From the UHGV virus genome UHGV-0176211: a DNA stretch of 39,415 bases; one strand, 5' to 3'. A program made the translations under genes and the position numbers. The notes below the pieces were generated by a model that had not been told where the DNA came from, ran no database searches, and was given only the letters and a program-made list of their open reading frames with translations. Source of the stretch: a virus. Below, piece after piece: positions 13,755 to 38,031 of the stretch (positions are counted from its first letter, which is position 1; each line of letters begins with the position of its first letter).

Positions 13755-16148
13755 ATGGCTAATTACCGTGATTTGTTAGAGCAGGCTGGCGCACGTTACG
13801 GTGTGCCAGAAGGGTTGATGACTGCACTGGGTGCCAAGGAGTCTTCTTACAACCCTGCCGCAGTAAGCTCCGCCGGGGCTGTAGGATTGACTCAGGTCAT
13901 GCCTGGGACATGGCGTGATATGGGTTATACCGATGAGCAAATGCAAAACCCCGAATATCAGGCTGACGCTGGCGCGCGCTATCTGGCAAAGATGTACCAG
14001 CAGTTTGGTAATTGGCGTGACGCTCTTCAGGCTTATCACGACGGTCCAGGCAACGTCATGAAGGCAAAGCGTGGTGAATATACTCCGGGGCCTGAGGGCC
14101 GCGGTTACGTTGATGATCGCTTTGCTCAATGGACGGGTGACCCGGTGACAGACTCAACAGTCGAACAGCGCGCCACCTCTGCAAAGGTGCATCCTCAGCA
14201 AGACCCTAACAACCCGTTTGCACAACTGGAAGTACAGTCATCCGAACAAGTATCTGCATCAGGTGTGCAGTCAGACCCAAACAATCCATTTGCTCAGATT
14301 GAGCAGCAGGCAGCCAGTCAGCAGCCACCTCAACCCGTAAGTTCTGTCGCGCCGAAACCTGTTCAGCAACAAGACGGAATAATGTCTGACCTTGGTAATG
14401 GATTTGCTGAAACAGGGCGCGGCTTACTACAGGCAGGAATCAACGTAGCGAACATACCTGCTGAACTCACTGATGCTGTAGCAAGCGCGGCGGCTTGGGC
14501 TGGCGGTAAACTCGGCATTGGAGATGGTACATATCAACCAGCGCCACGAGTAACAACGCAGGGATTAGAGCAGGACTTTGGCCTTCAGCAAGGCGCGCTG
14601 ACTCCACAAACAACAGAGGGAAGGGTATTTGCTGAAGCATTGCCTTACCTCACTCCTGCTGGCGTTGAGAGAGTGGCGGTACAGGCACCAACACTTGCTG
14701 GTCGAATTGCTCAGGGGGCAACTCGCCTTCTAGCAGAAAACGCAGTTGGATCACTTGCTGCAAATAGTGCGAAAGATGATGCGGAAGCACTCGCTACCGA
14801 TTTAGGCGTTGGCGTGCTGGCTGGCGGTGCTATTAACGCTGCCGGGCGTGGATTAGGCGCTGCTTATCGTGGCGTTCGTGGTGCTATTGCACCAGAAGCG
14901 CAGCAAGCTATCAGATTTGCAGAGCGTGAAGGGGTGCCCCTGCACACCACAGACCTGTTACAGCCTACTTCCCGCGTCGGAAAAATGGCGCAAACGACAG
15001 CAGAAAATATCCCTCTTGCTGGCACAAGCAGAATGAGAGCAACGCAACAGGAAGCGAGAAGCCAGTTGGTGCAGAGATTTGCTGATAAATTCGGTGAGTA
15101 TGATCCAGCGGTTGTTATTGACAGCCTTAAAGCGAAAACATCAGGAATTCGTCGTGCTGCCGGTAATAGACTGGAGCAGGTTCAGAATGCTATGGCTGGA
15201 GTAAACATTCAGCCTGTGCGAGCAATTCAGCAGATTGATACAGAAATATCTAATCTGCAGAAGCTTGGTAAGGTCGCTGATAACGAGACGATTTCAAAAC
15301 TTCAGTCATATCGTGATGAGCTTGTTCGCAATGCTGGTCCTGATGGTCCGGTCAATCTGGATTTGAAGCAATTAAGCGATCTGCGCAGCCAGTTCAGAAT
15401 GGACGTGAAGGGTGAGCGACCAGTGTTACCAAACCGTTCCGATGCCGCCATTCAGCGCGTTTACAAGGCAATGACTGGCGATATCAATGGTGCCATTGGT
15501 CAGAATCTTGGCAACGATACTCTCCGTAAATACCAGCAGGCCAATGCCGTCTACGCTGACGAAGCGGCGAAACTAAAGAACACCAGGCTGAAGAATGTTC
15601 TCATGAAAGGCGATCTGACGCCGGAAGTTGTCAATAACATGCTATTCAGCAAGAACAAATCTGAAATTAAGGCGCTGTATAACTCAGTTGGTCGTGTTGG
15701 CAGGGCGCAAATGCGCAATGGCATCATTGGGAAGGCGATGGAGAAATCTGGTGGATCTCCTGATCAGTTCCTTCGGCAGCTTAACATCCTGCAAAACCAG
15801 ACTGGCATCACATTTAAAGGGCAGGAAGCTGCTTATCTGAAAGGATTGAAAAACTACCTGCAATCCACGCAGCAGGCTGCAAAAGCGGCAGTAACAACAC
15901 CAACAGGACAACAAACCATCCCGTTCATTATTTGGTATGGTACGGCAATGAATCAGTTGACAACTGGCGCAACAGTAAGCTACGGACTTCTCGCTCGCGC
16001 CTATGAGAGCGAGCCATTCAGAAATGCAATGCTACGAATGGCAAACACCCCACGCGGCTCAACAGCGTTTGAGAAAGCCATACAGCAGGCGCAAAAGGCC
16101 ATTAACGCCCTTACTCAGGGCGCCAAGTCTGATGCGTTGTCAGAATAG
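13755..16148 (+). CDS. Ejection protein, gp16-like, with N-terminal lytic transglycosylase domain
   Basis: 797 aa; N-terminal ~110 aa has SLT-like motifs (AKESSYNP, GLTQVMPGTW, AYHDGPG). Confidence 0.65.
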   Translation: MANYRDLLEQAGARYGVPEGLMTALGAKESSYNPAAVSSAGAVGLTQVMPGTWRDMGYTDEQMQNPEYQADAGARYLAKMYQQFGNWRDALQAYHDGPGNVMKAKRGEYTPGPEGRGYVDDRFAQWTGDPVTDSTVEQRATSAKVHPQQDPNNPFAQLEVQSSEQVSASGVQSDPNNPFAQIEQQAASQQPPQPVSSVAPKPVQQQDGIMSDLGNGFAETGRGLLQAGINVANIPAELTDAVASAAAWAGGKLGIGDGTYQPAPRVTTQGLEQDFGLQQGALTPQTTEGRVFAEALPYLTPAGVERVAVQAPTLAGRIAQGATRLLAENAVGSLAANSAKDDAEALATDLGVGVLAGGAINAAGRGLGAAYRGVRGAIAPEAQQAIRFAEREGVPLHTTDLLQPTSRVGKMAQTTAENIPLAGTSRMRATQQEARSQLVQRFADKFGEYDPAVVIDSLKAKTSGIRRAAGNRLEQVQNAMAGVNIQPVRAIQQIDTEISNLQKLGKVADNETISKLQSYRDELVRNAGPDGPVNLDLKQLSDLRSQFRMDVKGERPVLPNRSDAAIQRVYKAMTGDINGAIGQNLGNDTLRKYQQANAVYADEAAKLKNTRLKNVLMKGDLTPEVVNNMLFSKNKSEIKALYNSVGRVGRAQMRNGIIGKAMEKSGGSPDQFLRQLNILQNQTGITFKGQEAAYLKGLKNYLQSTQQAAKAAVTTPTGQQTIPFIIWYGTAMNQLTTGATVSYGLLARAYESEPFRNAMLRMANTPRGSTAFEKAIQQAQKAINALTQGAKSDALSE

Positions 16149-16237
16149 TTTTTCAAGCACAAGGAACGTGCAAAAGCCAAATATGTAGAACGCAAGATTC
16201 AGCATGTCTCTGTTCATAAATCCTCCACAACGGATTG

Positions 16238-16723
16238 TTATCTGATGTTACTGCTACTGTTGCATGTGACTGTATTTCCAAACCCTGAATTGCAGTTTGT
16301 ATAGGTGTCAACACGCGTTGGGTAAGGTTGAGTTATAACAGGCTGTCTGGCTTTTTGCTCGATCGCTTGCATTGTGTTTAAAGCCTGATAATTCAATAAA
16401 GCCTGCTGAAATGCCTGGCTTTGCGCTATTTGCTGGGCTTGTTCTTGGGCTTGCAATTGAACATAAAGATTCTGAAGCTCAAGTCTTGCCTGCGCGTTAC
16501 TTATCTTGCCTTCATCGACACCTTGCCCGAGCATCTTCGCAGCAAGGACATACAGTTTAGGTGTTGGTGCTGACGCCATGCGTGAGTCGCTCTTCACGCT
16601 GGCATCAAGGCAAGTGGCCATATCGCTAAGCTTTTGATAGCGTTGTTCGCAATTTGCCTGATAGTCACTTACTTTTGCACATCCAACCAGCAGAAACGGG
16701 ATAATTAACAGTGCCTTTTTCAT
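16238..16723 (-). CDS. Lipoprotein (candidate superinfection-exclusion / moron)
   Basis: Signal peptide MKKALLIIPFLLVGC with lipobox LVGC, Gln-rich coiled-coil body; start taken at internal Met (track ORF 16238..16741). Confidence 0.6.
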   Translation of the reverse strand: MKKALLIIPFLLVGCAKVSDYQANCEQRYQKLSDMATCLDASVKSDSRMASAPTPKLYVLAAKMLGQGVDEGKISNAQARLELQNLYVQLQAQEQAQQIAQSQAFQQALLNYQALNTMQAIEQKARQPVITQPYPTRVDTYTNCNSGFGNTVTCNSSSNIR

Positions 16724-16744
16724 ATTGGTAACCCTCATCATTTT

Positions 16745-17401
16745 TTAAGCTCTTGCAATCTTCTCAGCGCATTTACGCACAACTCGCGGTATCGTCTCTT
16801 TCAGCTCATCCCACGAGTTGACAAACTCCATATCAAGAGCCTGAACAAGAGACTTCTGTATCTCGCTGCGCAACTGGTTGGTTTTTGCATCCTGAGAATC
16901 CCAGGTATCAAACCCGGTAACTTCACGGATATCTATCGATTCCTTAACCACCTTTGCAACCTGAATGAAATGACCACTATGACCAATCCTACCTTCTGTA
17001 CGCTCAAGCATCCGACTAACTGCTGCGTTAAGCTCCACAAAACTTGCCGCACCAATGTTTCGCAACTCGACCTGTCTCTGGGTGATAAAACGATCAATGA
17101 CGAGAAAGTGGAAATAAGTGCTGTACTGCTCGGCGACATACACCGCCAGATGGAGACTTAGCCACGTTTTCCCATTCCTTCCTCTCGTTGTTTTTAACGG
17201 AATAATACCAGTCTCCTCTTCACAAACACGCATGAAGTCTTTGCAGTCATCCGTTTTCAGTATCTGAGCAAGATTTCTTGGTTGAAGACCGTTATCAAAT
17301 CTCCATCGGTTCATTTGAACGGTTAGTGTTGACGCATCGATATACTCATCTCTGGTGAACTCGACTTCACCGTATGGGAACTCTAAAGTCTGCACTTTCA
17401 T
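16745..17401 (-). CDS. KilA-N / BRO-N-like DNA-binding domain protein
   Basis: 218 aa; GKTWLSLHLAVYVAEQYSTYFHFLV resembles the KilA-N core; GGAGAA RBS; family tentative. Confidence 0.4.
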   Translation of the reverse strand: MKVQTLEFPYGEVEFTRDEYIDASTLTVQMNRWRFDNGLQPRNLAQILKTDDCKDFMRVCEEETGIIPLKTTRGRNGKTWLSLHLAVYVAEQYSTYFHFLVIDRFITQRQVELRNIGAASFVELNAAVSRMLERTEGRIGHSGHFIQVAKVVKESIDIREVTGFDTWDSQDAKTNQLRSEIQKSLVQALDMEFVNSWDELKETIPRVVRKCAEKIARA

Positions 17402-17432
17402 ATCTTTTTCTCCAATTAATTACCTCACTTAA

Positions 17433-17462
17433 ATTATATTCCTAATTTATTTGTTTATGCAA
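17433..17462 (-). promoter_or_regulatory. Sigma70-like promoter for the leftward lipoprotein operon
   Basis: On minus strand: TTGCAT, 18-nt spacer, TATAAT, about 30 nt upstream of the 16745..17401 gene start. Confidence 0.5.
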
Positions 17463-17556
17463 CCATTAATACACAAAATTAGAGCAAATTAGACTTTTTA
17501 GGTGTTTGTGTGTGAACAATCTCTGCCATGCCATCACTCCAAGTTAGTGCGCTGGC

Positions 17557-17589
17557 ATGATAGAATCACTCTACTATATTCTCAATAGG
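17557..17589. promoter_or_regulatory. Arc operator / Pant-like region
   Basis: ATGATAGAATCACTCTACTATATTCTCAATAGG differs by about one base from the P22 Arc operator as I recall it; lies ~40 nt upstream of arc. Confidence 0.6.
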
Positions 17590-17618
17590 TCCACTGTGGG
17601 CCGTGCTGTGAGGTGAAT

Positions 17619-17777
17619 ATGAAAGGAATGAGCAAGATGCCGCAGTTCAATTTGCGGTGGCCTAAAGAAGTGTTGGATTTGGTACGCAAGGTGGCGGAAG
17701 AGAATGGTCGATCTGTTAACTCTGAGATTTATCAGAGAGTAATTGCCAGTCTTAAGAAGGAAGGGCGCATTAGCTAG
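17619..17777 (+). CDS. arc: Arc repressor (ribbon-helix-helix)
   Basis: 52-aa ORF read by eye, MKGMSKMPQFNLRWPKEVLDLVRKVAEENGRSVNSEIYQRV..., near-identical to P22 Arc as recalled; below ORF-track cutoff. Confidence 0.85.
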   Translation: MKGMSKMPQFNLRWPKEVLDLVRKVAEENGRSVNSEIYQRVIASLKKEGRIS

Positions 17778-18024
17778 AATACCTCTTCCGGCAATAGAAG
17801 AGCATTACTACTCAGCAAGGGAGGTTGCAGAGAATCTTGGAGTAACAGCCAACAAGATTGGTCGCATTGCTAACGCAAACAACCTCAAAACTGAGCGGTA
17901 CGGGAAGTTCTTTCTGGATAAATCGTCGCACTCCAGCAAACAGGTAGAGGCGTTCCGTTACAATTCTGAAGGCGTTAAGGCACTACAACACCTGCTAAAT
18001 TTCACGGCGTTTCCTGTCGATTGA
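17743..18024 (+). CDS. Hypothetical HTH-like protein at the ant position (possible remnant)
   Basis: 93-aa ORF whose only ATG lies inside arc in another frame; contains AREVAENLGVTANKIGRIA HTH-like segment; far shorter than P22 Ant (~300 aa). Confidence 0.3.
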   Translation: MPVLRRKGALARIPLPAIEEHYYSAREVAENLGVTANKIGRIANANNLKTERYGKFFLDKSSHSSKQVEAFRYNSEGVKALQHLLNFTAFPVD

Positions 18025-18061
18025 CAGCATGATTGAATTGGTATACATAACAAACGTAACG

Positions 18062-18084
18062 ACCCAGCTTCGGCTGGGTTTTTT
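18062..18084 (+). terminator. Rho-independent terminator
   Basis: ACCCAGC-TTCG-GCTGGGT hairpin followed by TTTTT. Confidence 0.7.
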
Positions 18085-18152
18085 ATGCCAAAAACTCACC
18101 GTAGCCACTCCGTGGCGGTTCCTTGTATATGGAGCAAATTAAATGACAAACA

Positions 18153-18656
18153 TTACAGCCCCAACAGATGGTCAGCAACCATGTTTGCTGCCTTATAAGC
18201 TATAGCTGCCTCATCAATGGTGTTGAATCTCCCAAGAGTTATGTTTTTACCTGAGAGATGTATCTGAGCTTGCCATTGATTTCTGGCTTGACAGAAAGTT
18301 ACCCCCTTGATTCCAGTATTGCTATTTCGAGGTCCGACATTTAACGCATTTACGACCCTGCTAACATCTCTAAGGTTTGAGATTGCGTTATTTCTTCTGT
18401 TTCTATCAATGTGGTCAATCTCTTGTTTTGGCCATTCGCCATATACATACAGCCAGGCAAGTCTATGTGCAAAATATCTTACGCCATCAATACTAATTGC
18501 GTTATACCCACAAGGAGTGATTGTGCCAGCAGCTTTACCAACAGCGCCTCTGGCGCTTAATTTCTTTTTCCAGGTGAAAATTCCTGTTTCTTTATTGTAA
18601 TCTAGAACCTCCATAAGGCGCTCCCGAGTTACTACCTCGTGACGTCTCTTACTCAT
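18153..18656 (-). CDS. HNH endonuclease with AP2-like DNA-binding domain (homing-endonuclease-like)
   Basis: 167 aa; HNH motif [18 protein letters not shown] and AP2-like segment [37 protein letters not shown]. Confidence 0.8.
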
Positions 18657-18669
18657 TATTTTCTCCGGA

Positions 18670-21366
18670 ATGTTTATTATGCCAAATCAATCATACAACG
18701 TTGTCGTTTCACAACCAAGTAACTTATTTACTTTAGCTCGCTCGTTTAAAGCAAATGCCAATGGCAGAATTTATATCGGTAAAATTGACACTGACCCGGT
18801 AAATCCTGAAAACCGGATTCAGGTTTATGTTGAGAATGAAGACGGTTCTCACGTTCCTGTTTCGCAACCAATCATCATTAACGCTGCTGGTTACCCGGTA
18901 TATAACGGGCAAATAGCCAAGTTCGTAACTGTGCAAGGCCATTCTATGGCTGTTTATGATGCATATGGTGCTAAGCAGTTCTATTTTCCTAATGTGCTGA
19001 AGTATGACCCTGATCAGTCATTGAAATATGTAGAAGGGGCATTGCTTGTTACTGACTTAGGTAATGGGACGTTTAAGAATAGTAGCAAAGACGTTGCCAT
19101 TGGGGATAATCTAACAGGAACCAATTTTATTAGAATAAACGGCGGCGTCTATAAATGCACTCCAGTTGCAACTGGAATTGTTACTGAGATCAAAGATAGA
19201 TACATTATCGCAGGCGGGGTTAAAAGCTACCTGTCTCATATTTCCAGACATGTCAGTGGTACGCGTAGGCCGCTGAACTGGAAATTAGAATTCAGCATCA
19301 TAGACAATGAGATTACCGCAGATCTTAAAGGTCAGTATGGTTATACGACCATGGGATTTCAGGGGATTTACATAGACAGCAATGATGGAATGGTATACAT
19401 CGGCTGGCAGACGCTAAACCCCGCATCGGTATGGGTTACGGTGCATGACTGGGCAACAGGAGCATTGGTAACACGTCTTCATTTTCCGAATAACGTTGGT
19501 GCACCAGAAGGCATCCACGTTTACAGAAAAGCAGGGCAGCGCTATATTCTACTGCCGTACAGCCCATCCCGCACTATCAGAATTTACCCTATCGGAGACC
19601 CGCGCACGCTAGCTGATAAAACGCAGATCACAAACTTCACGGAATCACCCAAACTTGGAGTGCGATATCAGTTCAGTGGTTTTGGTAATACCCTGCTATA
19701 CGAAAACGCGGACATGGGTTGGCCGAAAATTTTTGATGTTGAGACAGGTGTATCCAATATCTTTAACACACTGGATATTAACAGCCTTATAGAAGGATCT
19801 TATAGTCCAATGGGGACTATTACGGTTGATGCAAATGTTGGAGGTCGCGGAGCCGGTAAACCAAAACGGCAGGGTGTCGCTCTTGGTTCTCAACGGATAT
19901 TTGCTGGTATTGGTGCATCTACCACGGCGGGATCTGGAAATACTTTCGCAGGGTTGCAGGGTTATATTGAGTACAGCCATTCTGGTTCAGAATTAGGTCA
20001 GTACCTGCTGTCACCTGCAGATTTCAAAACATACTGGGATAGTTATTCAGGGAAGAGTGTTTACTCCACTGAAAATGAGGGGGTGCAGTCTTGTGATATT
20101 TCTGGCTCTGAGGAATTGTATCTTCTACAGTCTATTCGCTATGGCAATGGGGGCGGATCAAATTATAGGACTTTAAACATCATTCGCGCTAACTGTCCAT
20201 CTAATGAACCTGGAACAGTAGACATGAGTCCGCTATCCAATGCCGCATCACAGTTATTTAACCCTCGCGGAAGGGTGATTAACGCTGGCCGTCACCCTGT
20301 AAACCCGGCTGATGGTATTGCGCTATTTACATCGGCACAAGCTATTTGTGACTATTTGCGGAATACAGATGCAGGTAGATATGTGACATATCTTGAACAG
20401 GATATGCCACTGTTTGAAGGTGGGCCATCTGCGCCAGGACAGATGACACTGCCAGCATACTGCATATTGCAGATCGACTTCATCAACGGCGATACCTGGG
20501 AAATTACAGTTAATGGAACCAACAGGGCTAATAATTATACAGGAAGGATTTCCAAAAACGGCGGGTACAACTCTTTTACTAAGGTGTCCTCCCGCAGCAT
20601 GTCGATTCTCGGATCCCCTGGTCTGGTTGATGTATCAATTCGCTCACCTAACTCACCAAATCTTCCAGAATTTGCTGGAGACTGGTCTACTGGTGTAAGT
20701 ATAGGAGAAGCAGGTGGGAAGACAAACTGGCAGCCAGAAGGAACAGGTAACGGAGCATTATGGGAGTCAGGATATGCAAAAAACCGTGTGTTGCAGATAT
20801 TCATGTCCACAACATCAAAACTGTTCTTCCGCTACGCAGGCGATGCTATTCGCGCAGGTAACACAGGCTGGGCTGAGGCATGGTCGTCGCTGAACACGAC
20901 CGTCGATTCAAGTGGTTTCATCAAAAAAGCCTCTCCGGTTGTGAAGATTTTCTCAGACGGTAGTAGTGAAACAAATCGCGAATCAGATGGGGTAACCGTC
21001 ACACGGCTGGCATTGGGTGAATATCTGATTGAGGGTTGCGTAGGTCTGAATGCAGATGCTTCATGGGGTGGGATTGATGGTGGATTTGAAATACCGCAGG
21101 ACCGAAACAAGCAGCCGCTCATCTGGCTGGATTATGTTGTTAACCAAGATGGATCTGTGTTGGTGAAAACGTTTCACCGCACTCATGATAACTCGCCCGT
21201 TTTTGCACGTAACGACATACCTGGTGTTTCGAACGGTGACCCGATCGACATTCCTGCTAATCAATTCGTTTCTGTGCGAGTACAGATGCCTGAGGATTCT
21301 GCATGGAATAAGCTTAAGGAACAACTAAATAAGGCTGAATTGATAGAAGATGATGTTGTGGAATAG
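18670..21366 (+). CDS. Tailspike protein (P22-type head-binding domain plus distinct receptor-binding domain)
   Basis: 898 aa; first ~115 aa ([38 protein letters not shown]...[13 protein letters not shown]...NVLKYDPDQ) match the P22 gp9 N-terminal domain as recalled; remainder not P22-like. True start may be ATG 18679. Confidence 0.85.
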
Positions 21367-21405
21367 GTCTGTGATATTGGCATAGGTATAAGTGTCCGCT
21401 ATTTG

Positions 21406-21426
21406 GGTGGCATTACGCCACCTTTT
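21406..21426 (+). terminator. Rho-independent terminator after tailspike
   Basis: GGTGGC-ATTAC-GCCACC hairpin followed by TTTT. Confidence 0.55.
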
Positions 21427-21428
21427 CA

Positions 21429-21776
21429 TCAATCCAGTCCGTCCGGCACTGCCTGTACCATCTGCGCCCTGACCCACGCCACCCGCGACGGGTTCATATG
21501 GCACATGTTGTTCCTTTTTTCTTCATGGTAATGCCCATTACTCTCGTTAAATGGCAACACCTCATACAGCCCGGCACTTCTGAAATCAGCGTGTAATTGT
21601 TCCAGTGCCGCTTCGCTGGAGGTACCGATTGATGTGAGATAATCGAAAAGATTGGCGCATAAACCATAATTTCGAGAAAACACCCCACCTGGTTTCGCCC
21701 CATTACTCAACCACAAATCATAAGCAATATAAAACCCGTAAAGCTGTTTTCTGATATTTTCTTTGGTTTCTTGCAT
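21429..21776 (-). CDS. Hypothetical protein (early-left operon)
   Basis: 115-aa ORF, last gene of the leftward block. Confidence 0.4.
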   Translation of the reverse strand: MQETKENIRKQLYGFYIAYDLWLSNGAKPGGVFSRNYGLCANLFDYLTSIGTSSEAALEQLHADFRSAGLYEVLPFNESNGHYHEEKRNNMCHMNPSRVAWVRAQMVQAVPDGLD

Positions 21777-21811
21777 TATTTATTACCGCCCTTTCGGGCG
21801 GCCTCCTGACA

Positions 21812-22024
21812 TTAATCGTTGTGATAACTCATAGCTTCATTTGCAGCATCAACTGGATCAACATCCCACCAGCAATAATTTGGGTCGGCTCCTTCAGGTG
21901 TCCACGGCTCTAATTCATTTTTTGCCGCATTCTCGTCGCCAGTAATTTTAAAAATCTGCTCAGAAAATTTCCTCACCCACTCGTTATATTTTTCCGCATT
22001 AATGGTTTTCTGTGTATTTAACAT
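21812..22024 (-). CDS. Hypothetical small protein
   Basis: 70-aa ORF in the leftward block. Confidence 0.35.
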   Translation of the reverse strand: MLNTQKTINAEKYNEWVRKFSEQIFKITGDENAAKNELEPWTPEGADPNYCWWDVDPVDAANEAMSYHND

Positions 22025-22074
22025 AGATATACCTCCGGTTAAGGATTAGATTTTATTTACAACACTAAATTTAA

Positions 22075-22665
22075 TTATTCAGGCGCGCGAATCTGTTCCG
22101 CATAATGCAACAATGCTTCTGTCACTTCCTTAAGCGTTACGGTATAGCCATCGTCCAGCCCGGCAGCCGTCGCGCCCTTAACGAACGCCGAGCAAAGGTC
22201 ATTAAGCGCCTGCGCCCGTACTTCAGCCAGGAAAGCATCGGTGGCTGGGTGCTCTGTCTGGCTATGCATTGCCCATTCAGATAAGTACTCGAAGCAACGG
22301 CGAAACTCCTGCCAATCACTGCACATGTTTAGGTTTCCGCCTTCACACTCGAACTGGTAATTCTCTAAACGGTCTGCAAACGCTCTGCCATTCTCGATGG
22401 CACCAAGTGGAGTATCAGATTTCAGCCCAGCATTCTCCGCCGCCGGCGCCGAAAACTTCTCGTGTGCCAACTTAACAGCCGCATCAGCCTGCTTAATTGA
22501 CTCAATCGCTTTCTGGTGGTCTTCGGATAGAGCTGAAATCTTGGCCTCCGCTTCAGCAAATTTACGCACCAGATATTCAGCGTTTGTTTCGTTAACCTTT
22601 AAATCTCGTGGGATGCATTTACCTTTCAGAAAACCATCCATCTCAATTAGTGTCATTTGTTTCAT
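22075..22665 (-). CDS. Hypothetical protein, possibly Ead/Ea22-like
   Basis: 196 aa, coiled-coil-like N-half; ATGA coupling with upstream gene; family guess weak. Confidence 0.35.
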
Positions 22666-22844
22666 TTTTTCCCACTCCGCAACATCGCATTCAGATATTT
22701 GTTGTCATTAACAGAACCGAAACTATTTCTTTTAAGCAATTCCTCTCTCGATGGCATTGGCTTTACGCGTTGGCGAATAATCATTTCTGCCGGAAGAATG
22801 CCGGGATTGTATGCAAGTCCTCTCATGGTAAATTCCTCAGTCAT
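22662..22844 (-). CDS. Hypothetical small protein
   Basis: Start chosen at internal Met (MTEEFTMRG...) overlapping the upstream stop; the track gives a longer 107-aa ORF. Confidence 0.3.
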
Positions 22845-23112
22845 TACTGATAGCGCCATAGCGTGAGCGGTAATTACGCAGGCGCGGGTCGATATATTCA
22901 GGCCACTGCATATCCTGTTTTCTTTGCAGTGGGTAAAAACTTGCTTGCCAGTTGTCGAGCCATATTTGCTTTGCGTACAGATCACTAAATCTTTTCGTCA
23001 TCCGTTCATCAGAACTACCAGCAATAAAAAAACCGCGCTCGATTTGATCACGGGCTTCTTTTAGAACCTGCTCTTTTGTTCGCGGTGGCGACGGAGGTTT
23101 TAAATAATCATT
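22837..23112 (-). CDS. Hypothetical protein
   Basis: 91 aa from MNDYLKPP...; start overlaps the upstream stop (ATGA). Confidence 0.35.
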
Positions 23113-23773
23113 CATCCTTACGCTCCATATTCTCCAGCAGAGTAGCAGCCTCTCGAGGAAGCTCGAGTGCAGGGTAAACAGCGCGCCACGCTTCGTAAGG
23201 GTAAGCATTTACACTGCCGTAGCGAGGACAGAAGACTCTTTTAACCTCCACGTTAGCCTCAACACACCAGCTCTTGAGTGGTCGCCACAGATTCTTGGCA
23301 TCAAGCCCAAAGTCTGGATTAGCCTTAACCACGCGCAGAACATCGTAATATCTCACAGTCTGTTGAAGAATCAGTTTCAGTCTTTCTTTCTCTTCCCAGA
23401 GGTCGGCGGCCAGTCGCAACGCCTCACCCATTGTTTGCGGTACAGGAAATGTCGACTTAGCCGCGCTTTGCCGCATTGTCTCCAGCTGGTCAATCAGCGA
23501 ACGACGGACAGCTTTTGACTCGCGAGCCGCCACTCTCATGGCTTGTTTGTAGCTCATGACAATAGTCACCTGATCCGCGCCACCTTTTGTCTTATCCATG
23601 GGGGTTACGAAAATTTCGTAAGCCTCCCCATCCAGCTCATCCTTAACCTTGGCAATAAAATCATTGTTGCGGACCGGTTTTTCTCCGCACAATCTCCGCG
23701 CCTCATTAACCATCTTCAATAGTGTTTGGCTATTGATGGTTTCGTCGTGCTGCGTAGTAATTAACTCATTCAT
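23108..23773 (-). CDS. Antirepressor-like protein (partial KilAC-type segment)
   Basis: 221 aa; PVPQTMGEALRLAADLWEEKERL resembles the KilAC junction segment seen in the 244-aa paralog. Confidence 0.4.
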   Translation of the reverse strand: MNELITTQHDETINSQTLLKMVNEARRLCGEKPVRNNDFIAKVKDELDGEAYEIFVTPMDKTKGGADQVTIVMSYKQAMRVAARESKAVRRSLIDQLETMRQSAAKSTFPVPQTMGEALRLAADLWEEKERLKLILQQTVRYYDVLRVVKANPDFGLDAKNLWRPLKSWCVEANVEVKRVFCPRYGSVNAYPYEAWRAVYPALELPREAATLLENMERKDE

Positions 23774-23829
23774 TTAACAATCATCTTTCATTAAAACCCC
23801 GACTTTGTAGCGGGGGTGTGACTTAACAT

Positions 23830-24345
23830 TTATAGCGCATAGACTCTGTGCTTCCCATATTGCAGCCCTACAGGACTAAACGGAATATCCATATCGAAAT
23901 AATCCGGCGGTGGATAATTTCCGTTATTGTTTTGCGGTTGCGCTTTCTGCTGCTGTGGCTTCTGTGATTGCCTGCTGGCTGCTTGTTGTTTGCTGCCGCC
24001 AATGCCGCCAAGCATTTGCATGGTTCCACCAACGCCCACGATGACTTCGGTAGTGAACCTATCCTGTCCGCTTTGATCCTGCCATTTTCTTGTCCTTAAT
24101 TTGCCTTCAAGATAAACCTCTGAGCCTTTTCGCAGATATTCGCTGGCAATTTCTACCAGTTTCCCGCTCATTACCACACGGTGCCACTCCGTCTGCTCCT
24201 TTTGCTCTCCAGTTTGCTTATCACGCCATTGTTCTGACGTAGCAACTATAAGGTTTGCAAATGCCGTTCCTGATGGTGAATAGCGCACCTCAGGATCTTG
24301 GCCTAATCTACCGATAATGATTACACGATTAACTCCACGTCCCAT
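23830..24345 (-). CDS. ssb: Single-stranded DNA-binding protein
   Basis: 171 aa, OB-fold N-terminus ([18 protein letters not shown]), Gln/Gly-rich tail ending DIPF. Confidence 0.9.
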
Positions 24346-25053
24346 TTATACCGCCTGTTTTAGTTCGTTAACTCTGATGTTCATTACCTGAACGCATTTA
24401 GCCTGCGCATCCTCATTGCCAGCCATTAATTGCCAGTCATGCTGATAACGTTCTATGAGTTTTTTCTTGTCAGTTTCTGTTGATGCATAATCGCTGAAGT
24501 CTTTCAGGATTTGTTCGCAGTCAACCGATGGAGATTTCTGGTTGGTATTTTCTGGTGATGATTTGTTACCTGATGCTGGGATTGCCCATCCCGGCAGCGA
24601 TGGAGGGAGCCAGTAAAATCCTGTTCCATCCTTCAGTTTTGCCCTGTGCCACCCCTGCTTTTTATCGAGAGATGTTTGTGCGAAACCTTCCTCAAGGTTA
24701 TACAGATACCGACCGATTCCCCACTGAACGGCAGCGCGCTTCATTGCACCGGAACGACCACCTTTGACGGCTTCTACCTGCGTGTTTTCAGCAGCATCCC
24801 ATTTGGTTACCCATTCGGAATCAATCTTTATCGATATGCCGCATTCAACGCCGCCGTTGTTGGGAATATCGCGGTATTCATTGCGCCATCCTGCTTTGCC
24901 ACAAACATCGTCAAGGCGTTTCATGATTGCCCGGTTCGTGACATAAGCCAGCACCATAGCCCACACCTTGCCATCGCGTGCTTTACCGCTTTGCTGTATT
25001 CGCCATTCGATATCTTCAGGGCAGAATGGCTCATCGAATTTATTCAAATCCAT
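24346..25053 (-). CDS. Single-strand annealing recombinase (Rad52/Erf-type SSAP)
   Basis: 235 aa; KGGRSGAMKRAAVQWGIGRYLY resembles the Rad52/22-family motif; immediately upstream of ssb. Confidence 0.6.
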   Translation of the reverse strand: MDLNKFDEPFCPEDIEWRIQQSGKARDGKVWAMVLAYVTNRAIMKRLDDVCGKAGWRNEYRDIPNNGGVECGISIKIDSEWVTKWDAAENTQVEAVKGGRSGAMKRAAVQWGIGRYLYNLEEGFAQTSLDKKQGWHRAKLKDGTGFYWLPPSLPGWAIPASGNKSSPENTNQKSPSVDCEQILKDFSDYASTETDKKKLIERYQHDWQLMAGNEDAQAKCVQVMNIRVNELKQAV

Positions 25054-25061
25054 AATTCACC

Positions 25062-25232
25062 TCAGAATGGACATGGCCCAAGGAAATAACGCTGATTTAA
25101 TACTTCAGTCTTTGCCGCATTTAAAAATACTCGAACACCTTCACGATCTCCCTTCTGGCGATACATTAACGCCTGCTGCGTGTACATGCGTCTCTGTAAC
25201 TTGCTCTCCTTCACTGTGGTTGCAAGTGACAT
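25062..25232 (-). CDS. Small ORF, possibly arf-like
   Basis: 56-aa ORF found by eye with GGAGAT RBS, immediately upstream of the SSAP gene (the position of arf in P22). Confidence 0.3.
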   Translation of the reverse strand: MSLATTVKESKLQRRMYTQQALMYRQKGDREGVRVFLNAAKTEVLNQRYFLGPCPF

Positions 25233-25294
25233 GAATATCTCCTTCGTTACCGATTAATTCTTTCATCTGACGAACGAATTCTTCGTCTGACCAG

Positions 25295-25580
25295 TTAAAT
25301 CAAACCCTCATCAGTCAGCTTGCCGACAATCCACATCTCCCCTTCGGCGTAGAACATCGCCTGAGAGCGGCCATTTTCTGTCTCCCGCATGATTCCGTAG
25401 CCCTTGTCGATAAACCATTGCTGGAAGGCACGACCTCGCTTAACAGACCGGTTGTACACGCCAAACTGCTCGAGCTGCTTGTTCAGCCACACGGCGGATT
25501 GCCCGAACTTCTGCGCCACCTGCGACGCGTTATAAAGATTGTTGCGCTCAACGATGCGATCGTAAACCTCGGCTTTCGGC
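25295..25580. repeat. Inverted-repeat copy 1 (antirepressor C-terminal segment)
   Basis: Reverse complement aligns with 37745..38031 at ~90% identity by eye. Confidence 0.6.
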
Positions 25581-25966
25581 GCTGCGATTGATAGTTTCTC
25601 CTGTGCGATCAGCTTTTGTTCATACTCATTAGCCCATGCTCTGGCAGCTTCCGCTGGGTTGGCGAAGTCCGGTAGCGCTGCTTTGCGCACCTGCTCTTCC
25701 AGTTCCTGCCAGCGATCGATAATCCTTGCACGAAGTTCGACACTGTAACCAGAAACCACCAGCAATGTGTCACGCTTAGTTAAAAGCCATTCTCTTTGCG
25801 ATTGGTTGTTATATCCCTTGTAACTTACTGATTTACTTGATTCACTCAAATTTGAGTGAATGAAATCAATATCTCTTAATACATTGTCATGCCGTTTGCC
25901 TGTCAGTTCCGCAATCTCACGGCTAGACATTGTTTTTACTTCTGCGGTACTTATTAAACTGTTCAT
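25295..25966 (-). CDS. Antirepressor (Rha-type N-domain plus KilAC-type C-domain)
   Basis: 223 aa; N-terminal MSSREIAELTGKRHDNVLRDI, C-terminal ~95 aa nearly identical to the C-terminus of the 37297..38031 product. Confidence 0.65.
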   Translation of the reverse strand: MNSLISTAEVKTMSSREIAELTGKRHDNVLRDIDFIHSNLSESSKSVSYKGYNNQSQREWLLTKRDTLLVVSGYSVELRARIIDRWQELEEQVRKAALPDFANPAEAARAWANEYEQKLIAQEKLSIAAPKAEVYDRIVERNNLYNASQVAQKFGQSAVWLNKQLEQFGVYNRSVKRGRAFQQWFIDKGYGIMRETENGRSQAMFYAEGEMWIVGKLTDEGLI

Positions 25967-26388
25967 GATTTCATCTCCTCTCTCGCCGTCTCGTCGCGCA
26001 GGGGTTTAACCAGCATCAAATAGCCGGATTCAGTGAATACCCTCAACCCTCTAGTGGGGATGTCAAAAAACGGGAAGGCCGTTTTTTTATCAAAATCAAT
26101 AACATAAGTATCCTCGCCATCAATAAAATAGCTTGAGTTTCTTGTGTAGCTGTCACGAATTGTAGTTAACGGAACGCCATGCACAACAGCCACCTGCTGA
26201 AATGTAACCACACGCTCACCATTAAACTCGCAAGCTATTAGTGGGATATCATTAATCATCACGCTGTTCATGATTTTCCATCCTATCGTTGATATATTCA
26301 AATCAGGTTCTTTATCGCCGCGATAAAAACAATTTAAGACTCGCATCCTATCCCGAGCTTTATCATCATCAAAAAATGTAAAACTCAT
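25963..26388 (-). CDS. ORF6N-type domain protein
   Basis: NDIPLIACEFNGERVVTFQQVAVVHGVPLTTIRDSYTRNSSYFIDGEDTYVIDF parallels the N-terminus of the 256-aa product at 35577..36347; start uncertain (26388, 26271 or GTG 26403). Confidence 0.5.
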   Translation of the reverse strand: MSFTFFDDDKARDRMRVLNCFYRGDKEPDLNISTIGWKIMNSVMINDIPLIACEFNGERVVTFQQVAVVHGVPLTTIRDSYTRNSSYFIDGEDTYVIDFDKKTAFPFFDIPTRGLRVFTESGYLMLVKPLRDETAREEMKS

Positions 26389-26537
26389 TTCCTGCGATAC
26401 CACGGAAGGTTGACAGCTGATTTCATCGCTTTATTTGCTTCAAGCCACATTTTTGAGTCACCAATAAATCTGGCTATTACTGCTTTGTTCTGTGCAGCAC
26501 GAAGCATCTGGTGATTGATGGCTATTTCATTGCGCAT
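26385..26537 (-). CDS. Small ORF (50 aa)
   Basis: Found by eye; its stop overlaps the ATG of the downstream ORF6N gene (ATGA). Confidence 0.25.
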   Translation of the reverse strand: MRNEIAINHQMLRAAQNKAVIARFIGDSKMWLEANKAMKSAVNLPWYRRK

Positions 26538-26719
26538 AATAAGACCTCAACTCTTTTCCATCCGTCACGTAATTTACGGGTGATTCGTTCAAGTAAAGAT
26601 TCGGAAGGGCAGCCAGCAACAGGCCACCCTGCAATGGCATATTGCATGGTGTGCTCCTTATTTATACATAACGAAAAACGCCTCGAGTGAAGCGTTATTG
26701 GTATGCGGTAACGCCGCGC

Positions 26720-27088
26720 TCAGGCGGCTTTGATAGTCATATCATCTGGATCAAATATTCCTGATGTATCGATATCGGTAATTCTTATTCCTTCGCTACC
26801 ATCCATTGGAGGCCATCCTTCCTGACCATTTCCATCATTCCAGTCGAACTCACACACAACACCATATGCATTTAAGTCGCTTGAAATTGCTATAAGCAGA
26901 GCATGTTGCGCCAGCATGATTAATACAGCATTTAATACAGAGCCGTGTTTATTGAGTCGGTATTCAGAGTCTGACCAGAAATTATTAATCTGGTAAAGTT
27001 TTTCCTCTGTCATTACGTCATGGTCGATTTCAATTTCTATTGATGCTTTCCAGTCGTAATCAATGATGTATTTTTTGATGTTTGACAT
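26720..27088 (-). CDS. Hypothetical protein with acidic C-terminus
   Basis: 122-aa ORF in the early-left operon; function unknown. Confidence 0.4.
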   Translation of the reverse strand: MSNIKKYIIDYDWKASIEIEIDHDVMTEEKLYQINNFWSDSEYRLNKHGSVLNAVLIMLAQHALLIAISSDLNAYGVVCEFDWNDGNGQEGWPPMDGSEGIRITDIDTSGIFDPDDMTIKAA

Positions 27089-27104
27089 CTATTCATATCC
27101 TCAC

Positions 27105-27134
27105 AGATAAAAAATCGCCCTCATACTGGAGGGC
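27105..27134 (-). terminator. Terminator-like hairpin within the leftward operon
   Basis: On minus strand GCCCUC-CAGUAU-GAGGGC followed by GAUUUUUU. Confidence 0.45.
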
Positions 27135-27262
27135 AAAGAAGATTTCCAACAATCAGAACAAGTCGGCTCCTGTTTAGTTACGAGCGACATTGCTCCGTGT
27201 ATTCACTCGTTGGAATGAATACACAGTGCTGTGTTTATTCTGTTATTTATGCCAAAATAATT

Positions 27263-27505
27263 TTAATCAGCAATAAAATCTTCTGGTAATTTATCAACCA
27301 CTTGATGGCTTATTATCAGCCATTTGCCATCCTTCGTCCCGTATGCATATTTCTGGCCTTTTATCATCATGTGTTCAGCTACTGCCTTAACTGCCTGTTC
27401 GGTTACATCTTCTTTCTTTCCTACCCACATTCCTTTTTCAGTGTTTAATGTTCCTTGAAAAATACGACCACTTAATGGGCTTACGCCCATAGTTTTTACT
27501 CTCAT
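27263..27505 (-). CDS. Hypothetical small protein
   Basis: 80-aa ORF. Confidence 0.4.
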   Translation of the reverse strand: MRVKTMGVSPLSGRIFQGTLNTEKGMWVGKKEDVTEQAVKAVAEHMMIKGQKYAYGTKDGKWLIISHQVVDKLPEDFIAD

Positions 27506-27569
27506 GTATCAGTCCTCAAACAAGTGGTTTGCTGCCAAAACAATGAACCATCCGGAAATTCCAGATAGT

Positions 27570-27797
27570 TCATAATTCACTCTTCAATACTTCCAACTTA
27601 CTAATCGCCGAAAGATATCCGCGCTGATAGGGCATCATCATTCCTTCGAGCTTGCCACTTCTTAACTCCTCCCTGAGCAATTGTATTGCTTGATCAATAA
27701 CCTCTGCCTTAGCGTCCTTTATGGCTTGCTTGCGGGGCTTTGCTTTCTGCTTTGGCAGATTTCTCAAGCATGATGGAATGTATGTCTGATTCATCAC
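27570..27797 (-). CDS. Hypothetical small basic protein
   Basis: 75-aa ORF immediately downstream of the N-like gene. Confidence 0.4.
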   Translation of the reverse strand: MMNQTYIPSCLRNLPKQKAKPRKQAIKDAKAEVIDQAIQLLREELRSGKLEGMMMPYQRGYLSAISKLEVLKSEL

Positions 27798-28070
27798 TTA
27801 CCTCGCTGTCAGTTGTTTTGATTTCCGGTAGCCTGCCGCGTAAAGAGCTACGTTTGGAAGACAAGTTGAACCTTCATATTTTCTGGTCAACGTTGTCAGA
27901 GTTATCACTTCTGCTCTCATTGCTGGTTTGCGCTTGCATTGCAAGACCACTCGTGAAGGGGTTGGCCTGTGTAGCTTGTCGGAGCTGATCGCCTCCTGAC
28001 TTTGCAGATTTGCACGACGAGCTCTACGGCGAGAAGCTGCGGTTCCTTTAAATTCTGTTTTTCTGGACAT
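27798..28070 (-). CDS. N-like transcription antiterminator
   Basis: Start at internal Met with GGAGG RBS; Arg-rich motif TAASRRRARRANLQ; C-terminus LPNVALYAAGYRKSKQLTAR resembles P22 gp24 as recalled. Confidence 0.6.
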   Translation of the reverse strand: MSRKTEFKGTAASRRRARRANLQSQEAISSDKLHRPTPSRVVLQCKRKPAMRAEVITLTTLTRKYEGSTCLPNVALYAAGYRKSKQLTAR

Positions 28071-28179
28071 AGATTCCTCCCGAATAAACTTTGGCGATGC
28101 AATCTCGAAGCCCCTCCTGAGACGGTTGCTTCGGCATTGCATCCCACAGCTTATGTGGTTGGGTGATCTGGCTTTTCAG

Positions 28180-28215
28180 CCACGTAGTCGAGTGTTCGAC
28201 GTTGTTTAAAGAGCC
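28180..28215 (-). promoter_or_regulatory. nutL-like site (boxA plus boxB hairpin)
   Basis: Minus-strand GGCTCTTTAAACAAC, then hairpin GTCGA-ACAC-TCGAC, then TACGT; nearly the same architecture recurs at 29152..29183. Confidence 0.55.
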
Positions 28216-28260
28216 TGCCAGTCTGTTCCGTTTGGCTTCCAGCTTCCTGCTGATGACTAA

Positions 28261-28289
28261 ATAATACGGGACGTAGTTGATTAAGTCAA
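28261..28289 (-). promoter_or_regulatory. PL-like promoter
   Basis: Minus strand TTGACT, 17-nt spacer, TATTAT, upstream of nutL and the N-like gene. Confidence 0.55.
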
Positions 28290-28430
28290 CACAAACACTC
28301 TAAATGTGGTTAGTTTTTTTATAACTCTATGTATTTTATTGATTTATATTTTGGGAAAGAAAGTTGGCGCCAAGTTTTCACCAAAAGTGGTGAAATCCCT
28401 AAACCCTGTAGCCCGTCAAGAAGCTGGCCC

Positions 28431-28692
28431 GTGGTGCAGGAGATTCACCAGGGTGGTGCAGGAGATTCACCAGGGTGGTGCAGGAGATTCACTAGGGTGG
28501 TGCAGGAGATTCACTAGGGGGTGGTGCAGGAGCTGCACCCAGAACCAGTCACTCTTTTGAACCAGTCAATGAACCTAAAAACATTATGTTCGAACATGTC
28601 CGAACAGAGTGTGAAAAAACTCCTGACCGTCACGAAGAAACCGACAAGGCATTCGAGGAAATATTCTGGTGTGCAGGCATGCGGAAAGCCGG
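28431..28692. repeat. Direct-repeat copy A of an origin segment (iterons plus AT-rich flank)
   Basis: Near-identical by eye to 29986..30225 inside the O-like gene, with one extra 22-bp unit. Confidence 0.8.
28434..28538. repeat. Iteron array A (four 22-bp units plus a palindromic fifth)
   Basis: GTGCAGGAGATTCAC core at 28434, 28456, 28478, 28500; palindromic GTGCAGGAGCTGCAC at 28524. Confidence 0.8.
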
Positions 28693-28716
28693 TCTCGGCA
28701 ACCATTAGTTACGTCA

Positions 28717-37296: not shown

Positions 37297-38031
37297 ATGT
37301 TGGAAGTTAAATACAGTTACACCAACAAGAGAGAGGAATGTATGAGCAGTTTAATTAACGCTGCAGAAGTGCAAACCATGTCCAGCCGTGAGATTGCGGA
37401 ACTGACAGGTAAACAGCATGGGCATGTGTGCAGAGATATAAGAGTTATGTTGTCAGAGTTAGGAATCTCTGAGCAATCCAAAATTGGATTTGTCGAGAGA
37501 ATTAATAACTTAGGGCATGCCGTCAAAGATAAAGTCTACTTGTTGAACAAGGAAGAATCTCTCTGCCTTGTAGCTGGGTACAGCGCTGCTCTGCGTATGA
37601 AAATAATTAATCGCTGGCAAGAGCTGGAAGAACAAGAAAGTAAACCGGCATTTCCTGTCCCCCAAACTTATCTTGAGGCGCTCAAGGCGCTGGTGGTAGC
37701 AGAGGAAGAGAAAGAGCGCCTTGCACTGGAGAACAAGGAAATGAGTCCTAAAGCCGAGGTTTACGACCGCATCGTTGAGCGCAACAATCTTTATAACGCG
37801 TCGCAGGTGGCGCAGAAGTTCGGGCAATCCGCCGTGTGGCTGAATAAACAGCTTGAGCAATTAGGGGTATACAATCGTTCAGTTAAGCGTGGGCGCGTCT
37901 TCCAGCAATGGTTTATCGACAAAGGCTACGGCATCATGCGCGAGACTAATAATGGACACTCTCAGGCGATGTTCTACGCCGAAGGGGAGATGTGGATTGT
38001 CGGCAAACTGACTGATGAGGGGTTGATATGA
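37297..38031 (+). CDS. Antirepressor (Rha-type N-domain plus KilAC-type C-domain)
   Basis: 244 aa (possibly starting at Met16, 37342); MSSREIAELTGKQHGHVCRDI; C-terminus near-identical to the 223-aa paralog. Confidence 0.65.
   Translation: MLEVKYSYTNKREECMSSLINAAEVQTMSSREIAELTGKQHGHVCRDIRVMLSELGISEQSKIGFVERINNLGHAVKDKVYLLNKEESLCLVAGYSAALRMKIINRWQELEEQESKPAFPVPQTYLEALKALVVAEEEKERLALENKEMSPKAEVYDRIVERNNLYNASQVAQKFGQSAVWLNKQLEQLGVYNRSVKRGRVFQQWFIDKGYGIMRETNNGHSQAMFYAEGEMWIVGKLTDEGLI
37745..38031. repeat. Inverted-repeat copy 2 (antirepressor C-terminal segment)
   Basis: Aligns with the reverse complement of 25295..25580. Confidence 0.6.

Follow-up and report, generated by a model that had tools for sequence, protein, structure and literature searches.

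The genome UHGV-0176211, a P22-like (Lederbergvirus-type) virus sequence of 39,415 nucleotides (nt) referred to below as the window, carries an arc gene closely related to that of phage P22. Its place is after the last ejection-protein gene (13755-16148) and before the tailspike gene (18670-21366), the position of the immunity I (immI) region in P22. In P22 and epsilon34 this region is organised as mnt - Pmnt/Pant/Oarc/Omnt - arc - sar - ant - t_ant. The window shares with them the place in the genome, a homologous control region, arc and the terminator, but it is without mnt, sar and ant; the -35 of Pant and the right half of Omnt are mutated and the 3′ end of arc is altered. A first-pass annotation of this DNA had pointed out that arc and its operator hardly differ from their P22 counterparts and that no gene of the size of ant follows; its description of the elements is borne out throughout.

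Genes and features at the locus

The elements were placed by a three-way alignment of the window with P22-type immI (Table 1). In BLAST searches against phage records, P22-like DNA was found at 17519-17774, with 91% identity to P22 and 93% to epsilon34, so that the alignment to P22 immI called for by the first-pass annotation does reveal homology. From 17778 to 18000 the window aligns with the 3′ end of another anti-repressor gene, and the right-hand P22 backbone is found at 18047-18108.

The Arc protein of 52 amino acids (aa) matches Pfam PF03869 at 97.9 bits (cut-off 20.4) and, over 52 aa, has 90.4% identity with its P22 counterpart. Residues 1-15, which we take from the Arc-operator structure to be the N-terminal arm and the DNA-reading β-strand, are unchanged. 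The differences are concentrated in the last 12 codons (M42I, E43A, F45L, G52S, A53 lost). The Arc operator, Oarc, agrees with P22 at 20 of 21 positions. From their sequences, Arc and Oarc look competent. The identical Arc protein is present on 18 contigs.

The other genes of a P22-type immI region are missing. When the window was searched by tblastn with P22 Mnt and four other Mnt-like ribbon-helix-helix proteins, all five queries matched arc only, in agreement with the absence of a mnt-like gene noted earlier. There is no mnt transcribed leftward from Pmnt; its ATG alone is left, and this codon was placed with reference to the end of the P22 mnt coding sequence at 2512 of locus L001. A search for sar in 16000-19000 gave no Rfam match at E≤1, under conditions in which the sar model (RF00262) scored 97.8 bits on P22 and 62 bits on the sister contig L019. 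For ant, tblastn of the window with P22 Ant and L019 Ant gave no match, and P22_AR_N and P22_AR_C were not found in Pfam searches. The ant terminator is retained. The region 18047-18108 is 92% identical to that of P22, and its hairpin, with 5 GC pairs in a stem of 8 bp, leads into a T run; the strong terminator of the first-pass annotation is thus the homologue of the P22 ant terminator.

Table 1. Features of the immI locus in the window (ORF, open reading frame; HTH, helix-turn-helix)
Feature	Position	Strand	Basis or remark
218-aa gene in place of mnt	16745-17401	-	ORF, phrog_6095, DNA identity to Jerseyvirus
Upstream region of the 218-aa gene, Jerseyvirus-derived	17402-17531	-	Promoter annotated in phi135
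Crossover zone common to Jerseyvirus and P22, ATCT(C/A)T(A)GCCATGC	17519-17531		
Surviving mnt start codon	17527-17529	-	Alignments; opens a 16-codon junk frame on the - strand
Pant homologue with degraded -35, CTGGCA-17-TATATT	17552-17580	+	
Pmnt homologue, TTGAGA-17-TATCAT, aimed at the 218-aa gene	17557-17585	-	
Arc operator (Oarc)	17557-17577	+	20/21 to P22
Mnt operator (Omnt) relic	17587-17603	+	14/17 to P22
arc, 52 aa, apparently intact	17619-17777	+	
ORF93	17743-18024	+	Mostly phrog_1726 3′ fragment
phrog_1726 anti-repressor 3′ fragment	17778-18000	+	Codons 164 to ~237 of 242; predicted winged-HTH C-terminal domain
46 nt without match in any collection searched	18001-18046	+	Gives the last 8 codons and stop of ORF93
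P22 ant terminator homologue	18047-18108	+	Hairpin 18061-18080 and T run
HNH-AP2 homing-endonuclease gene, neighbour outside immI	18153-18656	-	

The 93-codon frame downstream of arc

The only ORF of at least 30 aa downstream of arc on the + strand is one of 93 aa (ORF93), as the first-pass annotation had stated. Beginning at the first base beyond the stop codon of arc and reaching to about 18000, the DNA matches at 92-95% identity the 3′ end of a ~242-aa gene, which is found in JEP4 (annotated 'KilA protein'), in phiKp_30 (hypothetical protein) and in the E. coli AR_0058 prophage. The match begins at codon 164 of this gene and is in the same frame; by tblastn, residues 13-85 of ORF93 correspond to residues 164-236 of the 242-aa AR_0058 protein at 92% identity. 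ORF93 matches the phrog_1726 profile (264 positions) at 181-259 only (E=1.1e-37), whereas the full AR_0058 protein covers 1-264. Full-length members, with ~240-264 positions, include an N-terminal domain that is missing here. As ORF93 covers only the C-terminal end of phrog_1726, it is a fragment and not the complete conserved gene that would have spoken against the first-pass annotation. Compared with the phrog_1726 anti-repressors JEP4 gp17 (241 aa), AR_0058 WP_021575671 (242 aa) and phiKp_30 gp080, it lacks the N-terminal ~163 residues and a start codon of its own, and its last 8 residues are replaced. Homology is lost after 18000, where the conserved family end ...HGADVA gives way to eight unrelated residues. 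The filler at 18001-18046 had 0 matches in the scan, and an E. coli genome search matched from 18043 on only, which is the ant terminator.

A comparison of ORF93 with Ant N-terminal families, proposed in the first-pass annotation, gave no P22_AR_N, Bro-N, KilA-N or ANT/KilAC domain above cut-off in Pfam and NCBIfam; the frame instead encodes the C-terminal domain of a different antirepressor family. The domain is 76% identical to the C-terminal module of the anti-repressor of Klebsiella phage ST512-KPC3phi13.1 (261 aa), and in that protein the module is joined to a Bro-N-type N-terminus, which marks it as a shuffled domain. By these comparisons, ORF93 is a gene fragment clipped at both ends and unrelated to P22 Ant. 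A search for homologous proteins with ORF93 returned only proteins of 51-162 aa, many of them marked partial, and the ~242-aa relatives were absent from it; the length distribution was therefore not used. A parent carrying the arc 3′ variant of the window together with a full-length downstream gene was also sought. The search found the same lineage only; the fragment may have arisen by a deletion inside a complete gene or by direct illegitimate recombination.

The helix-turn-helix suspected in the 93-aa product is supported at the level of the fold. The AlphaFold (AF2) model, built from 29 sequences (pLDDT 81), has a helix-turn-helix, a β-hairpin wing and a final helix. Its nearest folds in the PDB are the DNA-binding domains of RacA and the MerR family (TM 0.53-0.72), with weak E-values of at least 0.01. 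A winged HTH is a reasonable assignment on the basis of this model.

The sole in-frame ATG, GTG or TTG of ORF93 is the TTG at 17743 inside arc, which comes right after a TAA and 3 nt past GAGAG, a poor spacing for a ribosome-binding site. A good Shine-Dalgarno sequence, AAGGGAGG, is present at 17819-17826, with no in-frame start after it. The gene caller passed over ORF93 in all 16 loci retrieved from the lineage, and its product was not on record in an exact-protein look-up. A start and ribosome-binding site of its own, and a frame kept in relatives, as expected of a functional gene, were not found.

Natural variants bear on the same question. Three contigs with identical Arc (L011, L015 and L016) have a 689-bp deletion, corresponding to 17857-18545 of the window and bounded by CCAACA(A/G). 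Of ORF93 it leaves 38 codons; the terminator is lost and so is most of the HNH gene, and arc and the control region are identical to those of the window. The deletion destroys the predicted ORF93 fold. Since it occurs naturally with an unchanged arc, the deleted segment is dispensable in nature. In its window-specific changes ORF93 shows ~5 nonsynonymous and 4 synonymous substitutions. Taken together, ORF93 is probably not translated, or not usefully.

Three further Ant/Rha-like genes are present in the window, at 23108-23773, 25295-25966 and 37297-38031. The one at 23108-23773 consists of the phrog_1726 N-terminal domain fused to a different C-terminal domain. A phrog_1726 gene split between this locus and ORF93 was considered and rejected, the gene at 23108-23773 being intact with its own C-terminal domain.

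Control region and leftward cassette

Oarc in the window is ATGATAGAATCACTCTACTAT. Both TAGA/TCTA boxes are kept, and the sole change from P22 is G to T at position 10. It is the only Oarc-like site in the window, where 0.00 were expected by chance, and a second Arc target elsewhere in the genome was rejected on this ground. The adjacent relic of the Mnt operator is AGGTCCACTGTGGGCCG, compared with AGGTCCACGGTGGACCT in P22; the symmetric 17-bp operator is no longer there, the right half-site being altered at two positions so that GTGGGCCG replaces GTGGACCT. The broken symmetry suspected earlier is thus borne out, and because the relic stands in the homologous position the resemblance is one by descent and not a coincidence.

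The Arc operator overlaps divergent promoter-like sites, as in P22. The hexamers of Pmnt (TTGAGA, TATCAT) are the same as in P22. At Pant the -10 (TATATT) is unchanged, but the -35 is CTGGCA instead of TTGACA, and 9 of 12 promoter positions match. The stretch from Pmnt to the 218-aa gene showed no terminator-like site. In P22, both of the overlapping promoters, Pant and Pmnt, are repressed when Arc occupies its operator (PMC2724298, citing Smith & Sauer 1996).

Conservation of these positions was surveyed in IMG/VR with 106 loci anchored inside the arc coding sequence, which leaves the operator region unconstrained by the search. In the Pant -35, all 106 loci have T at position 1 and 105 of the 106 have A at position 4; the -35 variant of the window had 0 matches in the IMG/VR scan. 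At position 10 of Oarc there is G in 93 loci, C in 13 and T in none. Where the right half of Omnt is changed in the window, 92 loci have A, 13 have T and one has G. The half-site GTGGACC occurs in 93/98 of a separate set of pattern-matched IMG/VR loci, in which most operator positions are forced to match by construction. Over the whole control region, 93 homologous IMG/VR loci differ from the consensus at ≤5 positions, and the window does so at 12. Two GTDB genome scans with the control-region pattern gave no match, not even for the canonical P22 version. From consensus rules and this conservation, Pant is likely to be weakened in the window.

On the left side, the 218-aa gene with 130 nt upstream of it (16767-17531) has a DNA identity of 85-87% with a gene that stands alone and points leftward in virulent Jerseyvirus siphophages. 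Its counterpart in phi135 is a single leftward gene with its own annotated promoter and terminator. On the strength of this identity, the region 16745-17531 is a case of horizontal transfer between a podovirus and siphoviruses. P22 homology begins at 17519 and Jerseyvirus homology stops at 17531; the two overlap and share sequence in 17519-17531, which indicates a crossover via a microhomology of ~13 nt.

The 218-aa protein matches phrog_6095 (E=1e-122). It bears a weak, sub-threshold resemblance to Pfam KilA-N (E=0.0064) and has no match in NCBIfam. The labels on the gene conflict: it is 'amidase' in PHROG, and either 'amidase' or 'DNA-binding domain protein' in GenBank. The 'amidase' label is doubtful. 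In the Jerseyviruses the counterpart sits between the portal and head-morphogenesis genes.

Two sister contigs, L019 and L023, carry an identical 218-aa protein and the same junction between the 218-aa gene and the mnt stub. They keep TTGACA at Pant, an Oarc identical to that of P22, a symmetric Omnt and an Arc ending in ...RIGA, and they also keep sar and a 243-aa ant with the P22_AR_N domain. As L019 has the mnt replacement with ant intact, the replacement of mnt either came first or is separable from the loss of ant. The contig appears ancestor-like, with the region as it was before, or is without, ant loss. All IMG/VR loci that extend far enough downstream contain an Ant homologue. To find arc but no ant is therefore unusual, though partial immI regions are not.

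Probable decay of the region and alternative readings

The locus is best read as a decayed P22-like immI region in an advanced state, with a probability of about 0.8. In P22-like phages this locus has been named the 'ant moron', and ten types of it were described in sixteen genomes (Villafane et al. 2008, PMC2629481). Degraded ant genes in HK620 and Scho1, a degraded arc in Scho1, immI regions with mnt only in ST64T and ST104, and none in Sf6 were reported there, and such remnants were proposed to be immI regions that are no longer needed (PMC2629481). Phage L likewise has mnt only, and the same point about remnants was made for it (PMC8022706). The window resembles the degraded ant morons in its hypervariable locus and in its combination of partial loss and foreign insertions. 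It is unlike the ten types, as the text of that paper describes them, in having an intact arc together with a non-P22 anti-repressor fragment and a Jerseyvirus cassette for mnt. Nothing in the immI region of the window requires a new mechanism; the particular mix is absent from the described types.

Three steps can be traced in the alignments. One is the replacement of mnt by the self-contained Jerseyvirus-type cassette of the 218-aa gene, through a crossover in the shared stretch of ~13 nt. In another, the segment from the end of arc to the ant terminator, with sar and ant, was exchanged for 223 nt of the 3′ end of an unrelated (phrog_1726) anti-repressor gene and 46 nt of no match, and this exchange created the new arc stop codon. 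Point changes in the control region make up the third step (the Pant -35, G10 to T in Oarc, and the Omnt right half).

From these steps we infer the following consequences. ORF93 would be a pseudogene fragment, not translated to a useful extent, and the antirepressor function is lost. Arc would still be made, from the weakened Pant and by late-operon read-through, arc presumably being also transcribed within the late operon as judged from the organisation of P22 and the orientation of the genes. The protein would still bind its operator and probably autoregulates, and the transcripts from Pant would end at the retained ant terminator. By analogy with P22, Arc may also repress the leftward promoter, whose transcripts would cross the 16-codon junk frame into the 218-aa gene. 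The earlier proposal that Arc represses a promoter with little to control is only half right: Pant has itself lost its consensus -35, and Oarc also overlaps an intact Pmnt that faces the 218-aa gene.

The genome context is in keeping with such a loss. Homologues of P22 mnt, ant, sieA, c2 and int were not found anywhere in the window. There is no integrase-sized ORF after the tailspike gene and no ORF >235 aa in 21367-29722. Between an N-like gene (27798-28142) and a cro-like gene (28925-29140) no gene for a cI-type repressor was found; the gap holds a second replication-origin iteron block (28409-28692), which is 98% identical to its match at 30006-30225. Of cII only the first ~43 codons are left, and the O gene is partly duplicated at 29434-29688. 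The phage is thus predicted to be unable to lysogenise, and the genome looks lysis-only. With no cI and no integrase, an antirepressor and Mnt would be without a target, which gives a simple reason for their loss.

Several points weigh against decay as the whole explanation. ORF93 keeps its 74 homologous codons free of stops, and their protein is 92% identical to its relatives. Its break lies close to the edge of a domain, which makes a functional stand-alone domain possible. Another ORF of this family, of independent origin and with the C-terminal part only (P0002, 87 aa), is listed for 37 blocks of the assembly collection. That Pant is weakened is deduced from consensus rules and from the conservation of its positions; as for the divergent control region, recombination could have brought it in as an allele, without decay in place. 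Because arc has the same sequence in every contig of the lineage, it shows no variation by which selection could be judged, and Arc too could be a remnant.

The first-pass annotation had left the 93-aa ORF as either a new cargo or a decaying remnant. As a cargo it would be a stand-alone winged-HTH protein, translated from the TTG at 17743 or coupled to arc, with the role of a small regulator or of a decoy for its parent anti-repressor. The homologous part is read through in one unbroken frame, the domain is predicted with confidence to fold by itself, and besides P0002, which occupies the same ant-moron position, there are further independent C-terminal-only ORFs of the family, P0011 and P0024 (75 aa). 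However, ORF93 has no ATG or GTG, its SD-like GAGAG is too close to the TTG and the strong AAGGGAGG is followed by no in-frame start; it is not called as a gene and its product is not on record. Its family C-terminus is replaced, three natural variants dispense with everything after codon 38, and the ratio of nonsynonymous to synonymous changes gives no sign of purifying selection. P0002 is also without a Shine-Dalgarno sequence and stands beside unrelated, antisense-looking sequence, so that it looks like another remnant. We regard the cargo as quite improbable; the remnant, which accounts for the fit to phrog_1726 positions 181-259 only, is the half of the earlier alternative that is supported.

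Another possibility is a rewired switch, in which the changes in the Pant -35 relieve the occlusion of Pmnt and so take over the job of Mnt. Arc would then be the sole, autoregulated repressor and would time a leftward operon of imported genes, those for the 218-aa protein and the lipoprotein-like 167-aa protein, perhaps also tuning late read-through into the tailspike gene. The Pmnt hexamers are intact, against two changes in the Pant -35; the TAGA boxes of Oarc are kept and its one change makes the half-sites more alike (TAGAAT/TAGAGT); no terminator-like site separates Pmnt from the 218-aa gene; and Arc represses both promoters in P22 (PMC2724298). Arc is also identical on 18 contigs while its downstream neighbour erodes. 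Arc and Mnt have been proposed to influence read-through to the tailspike gene, and the ant moron to have a role in tailspike levels (PMC2629481). On the other hand, the cassette brings its own upstream region with a promoter annotated in phi135 and so need not rely on Pmnt, L019 has the same cassette with a canonical strong Pant, and the contigs are too similar to show selection. Such a switch appears unlikely, and it is compatible with a dead ORF93; it would modify the decay reading rather than replace it. If it were true, a two-repressor circuit would have been cut to one repressor in a phage that no longer lysogenises.

The junctions could also be chimeras of assembly, the window being a metagenome contig (ERZ1034773 NODE_91) and the region a patchwork from different phage groups. 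This is extremely improbable. The arrangement from the ejection gene to the tailspike gene was assembled independently from several samples by different assemblers (ERZ19661745, ERZ19634781, ERZ1034882, and Logan SRR7658635 and SRR7658606), and the variants differ by clean indels bounded by microhomology.

Read as decay, the locus is a well-resolved example of an immI region dismantled piece by piece, with both junctions mapped, an ancestor-like sister and further-deleted descendants. The natural series from L019 through the window to L011 could provide material for studying Arc in the absence of Ant and Mnt. Annotators should not take an arc gene at this place as proof of an antirepressor circuit, should treat the 93-codon frame as a gene fragment and should regard the 'amidase' label on the 218-aa gene with doubt. 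Beyond annotation the significance is small.

Some neighbouring features were also recorded. P0002 lies at 2501-2764 of L151 (and also in L152-L154), in another P22-like ant moron where it adjoins a Mnt-like gene, and its break is within a few codons of that of ORF93. The recurrence of truncation at one domain boundary may point to a hot spot of recombination or to a function that was retained. Where P22 has sieA, the window has at 16238-16741 a gene for a lipoprotein-like protein of 167 aa (161 aa as called; phrog_6067), and this protein recurs across several different ant morons, in the window, in L151 and in E. coli EC06.

On the tailspike side, the HNH-AP2 gene has been inserted after codon 6 of the tailspike gene (region 18144-18679). 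This has orphaned the old tailspike start, ATGACAAACATTACAGCC (MTNITA), and the gene now begins anew at 18670/18679. In the HNH-free allele of L013, which is otherwise like the window, the sequence runs uninterrupted as MTNITANVIVSMPSQ... The repeats that bound the 689-bp deletion are at 17849-17856 and 18538-18545, and the same hexamer occurs exactly at the HNH insertion point (18161).

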